Below are positions 1-64,000 of a stretch of DNA of 64,000 nucleotides, in pieces. The notes under the pieces were generated by a model, which was given only the letters and a program-made list of their open reading frames with translations, did not search any database and was not told the origin of the DNA. The first letter of the stretch is position 1. Every line of letters begins with the position of its first letter. The stretch covers positions 95,134-159,133 of the forward strand of contig JBBSED010000005.1 in NCBI GenBank assembly GCA_038240025.1, in the 5' to 3' direction. The DNA is from Chthoniobacterales bacterium (GTDB lineage: Bacteria > Verrucomicrobiota > Verrucomicrobiia > Chthoniobacterales > UBA10450). Made by a program: the position numbers and the translations under genes.

Positions 1-687
1 GCGCCGCCGCACATGGATTACACCGATGGTCCGAAGTATCCCGATCTCTGCCGGATCGCGGCGAAGAAGGACTTGATCATCAACACCGTCCAATGCGGCG
101 CGATGGCGGAAACAACCCCGATCTGGCAGGAGATTGCGAAGCTCTCCGAAGGTCGTTACGCCGCGATCGCGCAGTCCGGGAATATGGCCGTGGTCGCGAC
201 TCCGATGGATACGCGACTCGCGGAACTCAACCGGAAGATTGGCGCGACTCTTATTCCTTATGGCGACAAGGACGCTCAAGGAGCAGTGGCGGCGAAGCAG
301 GCGGCTTCCGAGAGCGCACCGGCGAGCGCGACCGCTGATCGGTTGAGTTATAACGCGCGCACGAACAAGGCGGTGCAAGGGACTGGAGAGTTACTCGATG
401 CCCTGGCCAAAGATCGGTTGACGCTGCAAACGGTCGACCAGAAAAAACTGCCCGCTGAGTGGCAGGGTCTTAGTTCCGAAGAGCTGGAAAAGCGCGTGGT
501 CAAGGCCCGCTCTGATCGGGCTGAGGTCCAGAAAGAGATCGGAGAACTGGCCGCAAAACGGGAGACGTTCCTGCAAGCGGAGAACAAGCGACTCGCGGCC
601 GAGGGCAAGGGCGATGCCTTTGATGGCAAGGTCACCGAAACCATCCACGAACAGGCGGCGAAGAAGGGAATCGAATACGCCCGCTGA
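1..687 (+). CDS. C-terminal portion of a vWA-like/coiled-coil protein (5' end lies upstream of window)
   Basis: Frame open to nt 1; '...YTDGP...LIINTVQCG' resembles the end of a von Willebrand A fold followed by a Lys/Glu/Ala-rich tail. Confidence 0.4.
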   Translation, partial: APPHMDYTDGPKYPDLCRIAAKKDLIINTVQCGAMAETTPIWQEIAKLSEGRYAAIAQSGNMAVVATPMDTRLAELNRKIGATLIPYGDKDAQGAVAAKQAASESAPASATADRLSYNARTNKAVQGTGELLDALAKDRLTLQTVDQKKLPAEWQGLSSEELEKRVVKARSDRAEVQKEIGELAAKRETFLQAENKRLAAEGKGDAFDGKVTETIHEQAAKKGIEYAR

Positions 688-703
688 GTAACCCGATCGC
701 GGC

Positions 704-2722
704 CTAACGAAACTGTTGGTGCTGGAGAATCTGTTCCGCAAAGGAGGGTTGCTGCTCGGCGGTTAGTTCCGCAGGGAACTTCGCCTGGGAACGATGCCAG
801 CGTCCAATCCATTCGGAGGCAAGAAGCTGGTAGCGACACGTGAAAGGCGAACCGAGCGCCGCGGGAGTCAGGGCAATCGTGGTTTCTTCTTTCGCCCCGG
901 CGGACCGGCCTTTCGCAACAAAGAAGCCGGCCGCGAGCAACGCGGCCCGCGCCGGGGTCGAGTGACTGTAGGTAAACAGTTCCGCGGCCCGGCCGGCGCA
1001 GGCGGCGAAGAGGTGGTGGAAGTTCTCCAGCGTCCATTGTTCACGGTGAGTCCTACTCGAGAACATATCGTAGAAGATCAGGTCCGGCGGGGCGGGCGCG
1101 GCCCTCGCGGTCTCGAGGAAATCACCGGGCACGAGCTCCCACTCCAAGCCGGAATAACGTTTCGATTTCCAACTGCCATTCTGCAGGATGCCCACGGGGC
1201 CGCCATGGCGCAGATAAGCGAACTTCTCGTCATGTCGGAGCGCGAGCCGGAGTGAGTCGAGATCGTTTTCAAAACTGATCACGCGCAGCGGGCGGACAGG
1301 TCCGAGCTCAGCCTGGGCTTCATAACACTCGATCGCCGCCATCGCGTTCGCGGCCGCGCCTAAACCGACATCCCAGATCACCAGCGGGTCGGGCGACGCG
1401 GTCAGCCTCTCGGCGAGCTGCGCCTGCTCCACATAGAGGCTGCGCGCTTCTTCCATCGGGGGCGTGCGCATATGCATGATCTCACCGGAGCTGACCTGCC
1501 GAATGCTCGCGAACCCCTCGTGCGCGATGTGGACTTCGTAGTTGCCTAACGAATTGGACCGTTTGCGCGCCGGACGGGGCGCGCGAATCGGGTTTTCCCG
1601 GTCGGAACTTTGGAGGATCGGGCGTTTCCCCCGGTAGAACTCAGCAAACCGTCCCGCCAGGATGCTCTCACGCATGTCGCGCATGAGCTGGTGGTAGAAA
1701 TGGATGTTATGCTTCCCGAGCAGCTGCCAGCCAAGGGTTTCGCCGGTCTTGGTGAGATGATGCAGATAAGCGCGGGAATAGCGGGCGCAGGTGGGACAGT
1801 TACAGGCCGGATCGAGCGGATCAGTCGAGAACTTATAGACACCGCGCCGCATCTGGAGGAAGCCATGCGAAGTAAAGACCGCCCCGCGTTGCGCGAGCTG
1901 CGTCGGCATGATGCAATCGAACATATCCACGCCTCGATGCACCGCCTCGAGGATATCGAGCGGGGTACCGACACCCATTAGATAGCGCGGCTTGTCGTCG
2001 GGCAGAAGCTGAGCGGTGAAATCACACAGCTCTTCGCGCTGGGCCTTGCTCTCGCCGACCGCCAGGCCGCCAATGGCATAGCCATCAAAGGGCAGTTCGC
2101 CCAGCGCCAAGGCGCTCTCGCGCCTTAGCTCCGGGAAAAGCGCACCCTGGACGATGCCGAACATCGCCTGCGCCGAATCACCCCGCGCGGCGAGACTGCG
2201 CGCCGCCCAGCGCGCAGTCATCTCGACCGCTGCGCGGGCGGCTCCTTCGCTCGCGGTGGAGGCGATGCATTGATCGAGTGCCATCATGATGTCGCTCCCG
2301 ATTGCGATCTGGGTCTCAACACTTAGTTCCGGACTGAGCAGGATGGTCCGTCCGTCGAGATAACTCTGGAAGACTGCTCCTTCCTCGCTCAAGGAGCGGG
2401 AGTGCGGCAGGGAGAAGATTTGATAACCGCCGGAGTCAGTCAGGACCGAGCGATCCCAACTCATGAACCCATGAATCCCGCCGGTCCTCCGAAAGACTTC
2501 CGCGCCCGGGCGCAGAAGTAAGTGATAAGTGTTCGCGAGCAGGATCTGCGAACCTGCTTCTTCCAGCGTGCGGGTGAGCTGCGCTTTCACGGTGGCCTGA
2601 GTCCCCACCGGCATGAAGAGCGGCGTGCGCACTTCGCCGTGCAGGGTGCGGAAGGTCGCGGCCCGCGCCCGCGTGTCGGGTGACTTAGCGTCGAGCTGGA
2701 AGTTTAACCGCGAAGGAGTCAT
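704..2722 (-). CDS. tgt: Queuine tRNA-ribosyltransferase fused to a C-terminal MnmC-N-terminal-like (MnmD/DUF752) methyltransferase domain
   Basis: N-terminal ~380 aa carry Tgt hallmarks ([13 protein letters not shown], Zn site [17 protein letters not shown]); C-terminal ~270 aa ([11 protein letters not shown]...[10 protein letters not shown]...DLIFYDMFS...LFTYSHS...[16 protein letters not shown]) align by pattern to E. coli MnmC residues ~70-245. Confidence 0.7.
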
Positions 2723-63445: not shown

Positions 63446-63806
63446 TTTCGATCGAGCTAACGAGCGCCGCGGTGTCGATCGGTTTGGGCAGGAAGAGATC
63501 CCCGCCTCGTTTGCTCAGCGCCTGCCCGCCTTCATTTTGCGAGAGAAGCGAAGTGAAGAAGATGATGTGCAAATCTCCGAGCGACGTATCGGCGCGAAGC
63601 TGTGCCGCGACGGCGCCGCCATCCATGCCTGGCATGTCGACATCGAGCAGCACCAGATGAGGTCGAAACTCGCGCGCGCAGGCCAGCGCCTGGCGGGAAC
63701 GATTTTCGACTCTCACCTCGTAGAGGCGTGTTTTTTCCAATGCGAGGCCGACGAGCCGCGAGAGCCCGATGTCGTCGTCCACAATTAAAATGCGAGGTAA
63801 GTCCAT
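63414..63806 (-). CDS. Single-domain response regulator (CheY-like receiver)
   Basis: ILIVDDD ... LVLLDVDMPGMDG ... LPKP. Confidence 0.75.
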   Translation of the reverse strand: MDLPRILIVDDDIGLSRLVGLALEKTRLYEVRVENRSRQALACAREFRPHLVLLDVDMPGMDGGAVAAQLRADTSLGDLHIIFFTSLLSQNEGGQALSKRGGDLFLPKPIDTAALVSSIEIVLDQTPARA

Positions 63807-64000
63807 AAGTTTAGGGTGCGTTCTGCGGGATCCTGGCCGGGGTCATGAATGTCGCCGATCGTCGAAGTGCTGGTGGTCGATCCCGCGATGGTCGCGATCG
63901 TTCTCGAAGGAATTATTTTGTTTCATGAGTCGTGAGGCTCGAGCACGGGAGGATGCACCACGGATCAGAGCTTGCTCCGTGCCAACAGCGCGGAGCGGGT

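Follow-up and report, generated by a model that had tools for sequence, protein, structure and literature searches.

A hyper-abundant nine-base word, specific to a clade of Chthoniobacterales, that may work like a DNA uptake sequence

The stretch of DNA analysed here (64,000 nucleotides of contig JBBSED010000005.1, assembly GCA_038240025.1, hereafter the window) belongs to a Chthoniobacterales bacterium of the phylum Verrucomicrobiota and has a G+C content of 61.6%. Its housekeeping genes include tgt, ppk2, a pho/pst phosphate cluster, a bacteriocin-type ATP-binding cassette (ABC) exporter with HlyD, and PolX. Further genes are an ArgZ-like/DDAH pair, a liv-type ABC transporter, a cyclophilin gene, an SPFH gene with an upstream cyclic di-AMP (c-di-AMP) riboswitch, an orphan N6/N4 DNA methyltransferase gene, thiG, an amylase-family gene, gpsA, plsY, mnmG and genes for histidine kinases. 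Scattered through these genes and the spacers between them is a non-palindromic word of nine bases, GCCTAACGA (word A), which is the subject of this work. All counts given below take in both strands.

Exact copies of GCCTAACGA number 47 in the window (28 on the plus and 19 on the minus strand), against a mean of 0.31 and a maximum of 2 in 100 dinucleotide-preserving shuffles. The word ranks first among the 9-mers of the window, the runner-up having 22 copies, and the remaining frequent words are unremarkable strings rich in G and C. One of them, CGATCGCG, has 51 copies where 25 are expected; being enriched only 2-fold and lacking a clade-specific conservation signature, it was set aside as ordinary. 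Allowing up to one mismatch to GCCTAACGA gives 79 sites versus 13.0 expected, 32 of them one-mismatch copies. A sequence-only reading of this stretch had already called the word hyper-abundant, with about 57 copies. The call was right, and its count is reached by adding about 10 of the 32 one-off variants to the 47 exact copies. Its coordinates are accurate to within a few bases, except that one variant listed at 17841 exceeds one mismatch.

Relatives were compared with the window through loci of about 20 kb around a single marker gene, that of the DDAH-family protein. The closest homologues of this protein (up to 88% identity) come from metagenome-assembled Chthoniobacterales and Verrucomicrobiota, and the DNA of the nearest relatives is only about 80% identical to the window. 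Look-ups of window proteins for identical entries gave no record. The word is not confined to this region: among outlier words, GCCTAACGA also ranks first in 11 further species-level genomes (fetched loci L001, L003-L009, L015, L024 and L046). With the window included, these give a pooled set of 182 exact copies in 280 kb of 12 species-level genomes, versus 1.42 expected, and the enrichment over chance is about 150-fold in the window genome and its relatives. Density across carriers ranges from 0.29 to 1.49 per kb, which is about a 5-fold spread between species at one syntenic locus. Many contigs of soil metagenomes likewise hold scattered copies in both orientations. The densest one seen (L160, Ga0137408_1449394, 4.4 kb) has 13 copies in both orientations, 3 per kb, and it also holds the octamer CCCCCCCC/GGGGGGGG 32 times. 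A scan of IMG/VR for paired copies, an insensitive test, returned no motif-dense viral contig; its only hits were local tandem repeats of unrelated viruses.

The 20 bases on either side of the 182 pooled copies carry almost no information, the only preferences being weak ones for T at -2, C or T at -1 and T at +2. Since the flanks are unconserved, what is repeated is the bare 9-mer, and not a miniature inverted-repeat transposable element (MITE), a repetitive extragenic palindromic (REP) element, a segmental duplication or a protein-domain repeat. Moreover, the genes that hold window copies are more than 24 and belong to unrelated Pfam families.

About three quarters of the window copies (36 of 47) touch coding sequence. 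The word is used in all four stop-free frames, read as S-L-G (nine copies), L-T (nine), P-N-D/E (seven) and V-R (four), and besides in stop codons and spacers: six copies supply a stop codon, as GCC-TAA-CGA on the sense strand or CGT-TAG-GC on the antisense strand, one overlaps a start codon and 11 are intergenic. In the pooled set, where open reading frame (ORF) calls are rougher, 46 copies read S-L-G, 34 P-N-D/E, 26 L-T and 17 V-R; about 20 are stop suppliers, about 11% overlap stop codons, and 39 are intergenic. TTA and CTA make up 2.9% and 2.3% of the leucine codons of the window, and 9 of the 56 TTA codons and 9 of the 45 CTA codons, about one in five or six, lie inside copies of GCCTAACGA. 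Both the four readings and the recourse to rare leucine codons, which the sequence-only reading had pointed out, are thus confirmed by the tallies. The 54 curated genes of the window end in TAA (25), TAG (15) or TGA (14), and a dominance of TAA is unusual for a genome of 62% GC. As six TAA/TAG stops are supplied by its copies, GCCTAACGA may be shifting stop-codon usage.

The copies show no polarity. In the pooled set 79 lie on the plus and 103 on the minus strand, and 90 of the 182 (49.5%) are on the locally G-rich strand, where the leading strand is inferred solely from local GC skew. Relative to genes, 69 pooled copies are sense and 74 antisense. Orientations are nearly even in several 20 kb loci (plus to minus 5:5, 6:6, 14:17 and 9:11), and along the window the cumulative GC skew rises throughout, yet the copies are divided 28:19, in 19 orientation runs versus 23.6 expected. 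Spacing is exponential, or Poisson-like (mean 1342, standard deviation 1406), with 6 close pairs of less than 60 bases versus 7.4 expected and 6 gaps longer than 4 kb versus 8.6 expected. Consequently, there is neither a regular spacing nor an association with terminators and the motif-free stretches, with gap lengths that follow an exponential, call for no separate cause.

Two features that had been put forward as hallmarks of uptake sequences are not supported here. Inverted pairs at gene ends come down to one pair in the window (9451/9466), and as close pairs are at chance and this is also the only hairpin pair of the pooled set, we rejected the idea of inverted-pair terminators. Absence from island-like segments is not shown either, since gaps are no longer than Poisson and the motif-free tail at 56-64 kb is made of housekeeping genes (plsY, mnmG, cdd, dedA and histidine kinases), though its part at 56-60 kb is atypical. 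The block 56000-59850, with plsY, mnmG (gidA) and the genes for cytidine deaminase and DedA, has 55% GC and a G+C content at third codon positions of 0.60-0.67 versus about 0.75-0.85 elsewhere. It contains zero copies and zero one-off variants of GCCTAACGA. Foreign DNA may have replaced this segment recently, or the segment may lie near the origin of replication.

Further information came from orthologous sites. Among the genomes with word A (mean identity of aligned flanks 77%), the 9-mer is identical in 41.8% of 622 copy-by-genome comparisons, versus 13.7% for all other 9-mers of the same alignments. When the comparison is made with genomes without word A (73% identity), copies are identical in 1.2% and flanking 9-mers in 8.9%, and the per-base identity inside the word is 0.31-0.73 versus 0.73 overall. 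The comparisons are not phylogenetically independent, and the effect is large. Sites of GCCTAACGA are otherwise fast-evolving positions that are frozen only in this clade; the control word CGATCGCG, in the same test, lacks this clade-restricted signature. Such clade-restricted identity indicates that GCCTAACGA itself is under lineage-specific drive or selection.

The orthologous sites show no indels, so copies arise by substitution and are not inserted elements. At codons 46-48 of the DDAH gene (35680-35688, plus strand, antisense, window-specific) the window has TCG-TTA-GGC and the relatives have AGC-CTC-GGC, both coding for S-L-G; this copy was therefore gained through five synonymous changes. 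At codons 232-234 (35122-35130, plus strand, antisense, S-L-G) the word arrived together with T-to-S and R-to-G replacements; it is kept in six relatives, and other clades have T-L-R codons there. Selection on the DNA word rather than on the protein, as had been suggested from the letters alone, is strongly supported by the clade-specific conservation, the gain by five synonymous changes and the use of all stop-free frames. The one-off variants of the pooled set are enriched only at positions 1 (C), 2 (A), 5 (G), 8 (A) and 9 (G or T), with hardly any variation at positions 3, 4, 6 and 7. In effect, the word reads approximately [G/c]CCT[A/g]AC[G/a][A/g/t]. The change of G8 to A is the fourth commonest variant (19 observed versus 0.6 expected).

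In the other Chthoniobacterales loci and in all Planctomycetota loci fetched, GCCTAACGA is absent or at background level. A large sister clade (L002, L022, L023, L025, L026, L028, L031, L033, L034, L042, L048 and L049) has its own outlier word, GATCGACA (word B; extended form (A)AGATCGACA(T)), at about 0.5-1.7 per kb by counts of GATCGACA, in both orientations and five reading frames. Word B is conserved in its own clade at 48% of comparisons versus 13% for other 9-mers, and outside it at 4.8% versus 10.8%. A third clade (L012-L019 and L021) has 0.3-0.6 copies per kb of word C, CTCGGGAT(G)/ATCCCGAG; close to half of them are intergenic, and their conservation signature is weaker than those of words A and B. 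L012 additionally has 10 copies of CGGCTACA, for which the evidence is weaker or the copies are few. No comparable outlier word was seen in the Ca. Udaeobacter loci fetched. The clade-specific words A, B and C map onto the DDAH gene tree. Lineages negative for word A hold 13 perfect copies of GCCTAACGA in 374 kb versus about 2 expected, some of them orthologous to window copies, for example that at 36303-36311 in L049, L021 and L034; these may be decaying relics of an ancestral word that was formerly used. A search for recent DNA exchange among the word-A lineages found no high-identity segments.

The only DNA methyltransferase of the window is an orphan beta-class N6/N4 enzyme (PF01555, 267 aa, 49950-50753, minus strand) whose gene adjoins thiG, has no nuclease next to it and holds three copies of GCCTAACGA. 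The enzyme is syntenic, collinear and 65-73% identical across clades with word A, B, C or none, and no clade-specific target-recognition region was found in it across the sampled Chthoniobacterales clades. An enzyme conserved in this way across differently worded clades cannot set the word, and we rejected it as the determinant. The proposal of an orphan methyltransferase target, one of the alternatives in the sequence-only reading, thus finds no support in the window.

A clade-specific and orientation-free drive or selection is acting on double-stranded DNA; the process creates and maintains an asymmetric 9-mer wherever coding allows, and its specificity differs between sister clades. As for its nature, we tentatively propose that GCCTAACGA is a clade-specific self-recognition word of double-stranded DNA whose most likely mode of action is that of the DNA uptake sequences (DUS) of Neisseriaceae and Pasteurellaceae, because transformation-coupled drive is a known process that gives exactly such a pattern. 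We infer both the receptor and the role of DNA uptake and transformation as the driving step. A surface DNA receptor of the competence machinery would prefer fragments that bear the word, and homologous recombination of these fragments would spread alleles that gain the word and repair alleles that lose it. This molecular drive would write the word into the four stop-free frames, stop codons and spacers, the places that the protein code leaves open to it, and would then hold the copies. If the specificity of the receptor changed in a sister clade, a different word would accumulate there and the old copies would decay. To our knowledge, sequence-specific DNA uptake is documented in only two proteobacterial families. 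It is thus tempting to propose, as a possibility and with due reserve, a third and independent origin of DNA uptake sequences, outside the Proteobacteria. Soil Chthoniobacterales would then possess sequence-selective transformation, and their clades would have switched among the unrelated words GCCTAACGA, GATCGACA and probably CTCGGGAT, leaving decaying relics behind.

The Neisseriaceae use GCCGTCTGAA and eight dialects of it. The minor pilin ComP binds these words, which share a CTG core, depart from each other by 1-3 bases around it and vary several-fold in number between species (PMC3630211). Like DUS, GCCTAACGA is short and non-palindromic, occurs about once per kb in both orientations inside and between genes, and is limited in its placement by the stop codon that it forms in some frames. 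Both also have a strict core, outer positions that tolerate change, many one-off variants and a copy number varying several-fold (PMC3630211). The clade-specific words recall DUS as well, although the occurrence of word A in L015 and L046 departs from the DDAH tree. On the other hand, its sequence is unrelated and its carriers are uncultured soil lineages of another phylum, Verrucomicrobiota; the words of sister clades share no core, whereas the DUS dialects share CTG; there is no excess of inverted pairs or terminators, which is typical of Neisseria and not universal; and, in contrast to ComP of the DUS, the receptor for GCCTAACGA is putative. The uptake signal sequences (USS) of Pasteurellaceae come in two clade-specific types, AAGTGCGGT (Hin type) and ACAAGCGGT (Apl type) (PMC1626085, PMC2346458). 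USS resemble GCCTAACGA in having a 9-base core, both orientations, an essentially random spread and a mostly intragenic location in tolerant frames and protein positions. The density of GCCTAACGA also falls in the range of both DUS and USS. GCCTAACGA differs in sequence and lacks the AT-rich flanking segments of USS, having just the weak T/Y preferences at -2, -1 and +2. Thus, of the arguments by which the sequence-only reading had arrived at uptake sequences, density and orientation stand, random spacing, positional tolerance and the words of sister clades can be added, and inverted pairs and island depletion find no support.

Several observations weigh against a role in DNA uptake. Words A, B and C are unrelated sequences with no shared core, and hairpin-type pairs are 1 among 182 pooled copies. 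No genes for pilin, secretin, ComEA, ComEC or DprA were seen in the 64 kb window, and a crude search of the fetched loci for signatures of prepilin, PilT/PilB, DprA, ComEC and ComEA gave nothing credible. Uptake and transformation are not known from any member of the order. Word A is also present, at 0.5-1.0 per kb, in L015 and L046, and some of their copies are orthologous to copies of the core clade. The DDAH tree, the methyltransferase and DNA identity (about 72-75%) nevertheless place both genomes outside that clade, which implies either deep ancestry of the word or transfer of its specificity. The comparison is based on one 64 kb window and 20 kb loci of a single marker. Finally, conservation at orthologous sites would follow just as well from selection on each copy as a binding site, as argued for the cyanobacterial word HIP1 (PMC5861425).

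This last point leads to the main rival, a chromosomal signal of the HIP1 type, in which copies would bind an abundant protein of nucleoid organisation, segregation, repair or replication and be selected site by site without any uptake; we consider it unlikely, though a serious contender. HIP1, GCGATCGC, is 15- to 300-fold over-represented, with about one copy per gene, its orthologous sites are conserved above their surroundings, and no role in peptide, RNA or expression is seen (PMC5861425). The same two traits, hyper-abundance and orthologous-site conservation (41.8% versus 13.7%), are those of GCCTAACGA and are the evidence used for selection on HIP1 (PMC5861425), and the symmetric orientation would suit a protein that binds duplex DNA. 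HIP1 is, however, an 8-base palindrome that contains two orphan methyltransferase targets and is common to most of a phylum, while GCCTAACGA is asymmetric, has no methyltransferase found for it and is replaced by other words within one order. The function of HIP1 was unresolved for decades and has lately been linked to transformation (bioRxiv 10.1101/2024.09.10.611283), so that the uptake and the HIP1-like explanations may converge. A chromosomal signal fits poorly with a spacing that is Poisson-like and not regular, and with a 5-fold variation of density at one syntenic locus between species. Sister clades have swapped the word entirely, for which a core system would have to change the specificity of its protein and thousands of sites. 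The roughly 11% of pooled copies placed on stop codons and the avoidance of conserved protein positions suggest, furthermore, placement by tolerance and not by need.

An improbable alternative is that the word is a DNA modification target (of a methyltransferase, a BREX-/Type III-like system or phosphorothioation) serving as a self mark that possibly licenses transforming DNA; methylated HIP1 and the Campylobacter RAATTY site are precedents for such licensing. A non-palindromic word working in both orientations, the orphan N6/N4 methyltransferase in the window and the boost that methylated HIP1 gives to Synechococcus transformation (bioRxiv 10.1101/2024.09.10.611283) would fit this. The conservation of that enzyme across differently worded clades speaks against it, and such a system alone gives no drive that creates copies. 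We also know of no modification targets that are normally enriched 100-fold, and nine specified contiguous bases exceed their typical length, so GCCTAACGA would be atypical on both accounts. Quite improbable, too, is a sequence-biased intracellular repair or gene conversion, similar to Vsr, that would resolve heteroduplexes or lesions toward GCCTAACGA without uptake. It would account for the directional, accelerated change toward the word at otherwise fast-evolving sites, for its clade specificity and for the lack of polarity. However, known very-short-patch repair corrects one position of a 5-mer and produces small enrichments, and here the drive acts on all nine positions; the expected deamination products show no depletion, as the excess of G8-to-A variants shows; and according to Xu et al. 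site conservation speaks against continual neutral replenishment (PMC5861425). Signals of chromosome architecture that are polar, namely a Chi site (RecBCD/AddAB) or a KOPS-like word orienting FtsK, are very improbable. Chi sites and KOPS are over-represented words of 5 to 8 bases, non-palindromic and lineage-specific, that occur at much lower density and are strongly co-oriented with replication. The clade specificity, over-representation and non-palindromic form of GCCTAACGA recall Chi sites, but its enrichment and density are far above those of known Chi and KOPS words, and the absence of polarity documented above (49.5% on the G-rich strand, balanced loci, and 28:19 in 19 runs under a monotonic rise of the GC skew) excludes Chi-/KOPS-like and transcription-oriented signals; the Chi-like alternative of the sequence-only reading is refuted by it. 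An artefact or trivial repeat (protein domain, segmental duplication, MITE/REP or assembly) is hardly conceivable: no point in its favour was found, flanks are unconserved, copies occupy four frames of unrelated gene families, and the same word appears in 11 independently assembled genomes and many soil metagenome contigs. REP, MITE and NTS/dRS3 elements also reach hundreds to thousands of copies per genome, but they are hairpin-forming intergenic elements of 20-40 bases, unlike this structureless word. NTS/dRS3 repeats are cut by Ssn nucleases and have been linked to transformation in Neisseria (PMC11893778). This Ssn/NTS lead was pursued for GCCTAACGA and rejected, NTS being 28-base intergenic hairpins.

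What is new here is a genome-wide hyper-abundant word of the DUS, USS or HIP1 type in a new phylum, with an unusually complete word replacement between sister clades. We found no hyper-abundant word or uptake sequence described in the literature for Verrucomicrobia or Chthoniobacterales, an absence that is no proof, and the occurrences of the 9-mer GCCTAACGA in the literature are primers or unrelated constructs. Chthoniobacterales rank among the most abundant bacteria of soils. Should the word function in uptake, self-preferring natural transformation would shape gene flow in soil Verrucomicrobia, and the clades would offer a natural series for the co-evolution of receptor specificity and genome-wide words. 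Donor DNA furnished with the word could then help to make these organisms genetically tractable, and the word itself could serve as a simple marker by which metagenomic contigs are assigned to clades and foreign DNA is recognised. If the uptake explanation is true, the words would also mark barriers to gene flow in soil metagenomes. The data make the question of how uptake words arise and switch directly testable. If uptake is not involved, they leave room for another process by which thousands of sites are converted to an asymmetric 9-mer peculiar to the clade; GCCTAACGA would then join HIP1 as an unexplained genome-wide word, one that is asymmetric and fast-switching, which narrows the possible mechanisms.

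The individual copies, all exact matches, are distributed as follows. Stop codons are supplied at 702-710 (plus strand), whose complement gives the TAG of the tRNA-guanine transglycosylase gene (704-2722, minus), and at 35836-35844 (plus), whose complement gives the TAG of the ArgZ-like gene (35838-37208, minus) and which is kept in L001, L006, L009 and L024. TAA stops are supplied to phoU (6352-7041, plus) by the copy at 7036-7044 (plus), to a pstC-like permease gene (12488-13474, minus) by that at 12485-12493 (minus), with the start of the next gene directly after, to a low-molecular-weight phosphatase gene (17850-18296, plus) by that at 18291-18299 (plus), and to thiG (50811-51605, plus) by that at 51600-51608 (plus).

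Besides the two DDAH copies given above, S-L-G is encoded antisense at 1544-1552 (plus) in the tRNA-guanine transglycosylase gene, as TCG-TTA-GGC; at 17701-17709 (minus) in the gene for an MIP channel; at 18501-18509 (plus) in that for a major facilitator superfamily protein; at 36303-36311 (plus) in the ArgZ-like gene, kept in L001, L003, L004, L008, L015 and L046; at 38202-38210 (plus) in an ABC ATPase gene; and at 40705-40713 and 41876-41884 (both plus), each in a branched-chain permease gene. V-R copies, antisense as well, lie at 24894-24902 (minus) in the gene for the C39-peptidase ABC exporter (kept in L003 and L024, one-off in L007-L009), at 33894-33902 (minus) in the PolX gene (kept in L003, L006 and L007), at 47143-47151 (minus) in a hypothetical gene (45828-47255, plus) and at 54677-54685 (minus) in a formyltransferase gene.

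The sense copies reading L-T are found at 9116-9124 (minus) in a hypothetical gene (9006-9362, minus), at 43175-43183 (plus) in an aspartyl-protease-domain gene (kept in L001 and L006), at 44335-44343 (plus) in the cyclophilin gene, at 49239-49247 (plus) in an HD-domain gene, at 50021-50029 and 50096-50104 (both minus) in the methyltransferase gene, at 53220-53228 and 53748-53756 (both plus) in the alpha-amylase-family gene and at 55853-55861 (minus) in gpsA, the last copy before the motif-free 8 kb. Those reading P-N-D/E lie at 14104-14112 (minus) in a pstS-like gene, at 43152-43160 (plus) in the aspartyl-protease-domain gene, at 50416-50424 (minus) in the methyltransferase gene, at 52663-52671 (plus) in the alpha-amylase-family gene and at 54936-54944 (plus) in the formyltransferase gene. 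Another, at 53233-53241 (plus, P-N-E), forms with the copy at 53220 a 13-base direct pair read in two different frames of the alpha-amylase-family gene.

The remaining sense copy belongs to a tandem pair (27890-27898 and 27900-27908, both plus) that spans a gene junction. One T separates the two copies; the last A of the first, this T and the first G of the second are the ATG start of the HlyD gene, so that the protein begins M-P-N-E. Intergenic copies lie at 4724-4732 (plus), at 7948-7956 (minus, between the DUF47 and PHO4 genes), at 9451-9459 (plus) and 9466-9474 (minus), the left and right arms of the sole inverted pair, at 14635-14643 and 31865-31873 (both minus), at 45028-45036 (plus, 2 bases past the cyclophilin stop, kept in five relatives), at 45245-45253 (minus, kept in L001, L007, L015 and L046), at 47503-47511 (minus), at 51706-51714 (plus) and at 51944-51952 (minus, upstream of the alpha-amylase-family gene).

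The copy at 47503-47511 stands between the aptamer of the c-di-AMP riboswitch (ydaO type, 47322-47477, plus, 56.6 bits) and the start codon of the SPFH/Band-7 gene (47578-48879) that follows it. At 24773-30087, an NHLP-type bacteriocin export ABC transporter with a C39 peptidase domain is followed by HlyD and a sigma-54 activator; these genes look like a peptide-export module, and the exporter has an N-terminal extension of about 325 residues without annotation. Finally, the ORFs at 30792-31316 and 32833-33333 (both minus) share a near-identical NlpC/P60-like N-terminal stretch (PTVPG..AQLRHGVACAP.KAPL.VKRAIWA...LRKRPYR.GGGH). As the second of them overlaps the annotated 5' end of PolX, the start of PolX is probably further downstream.

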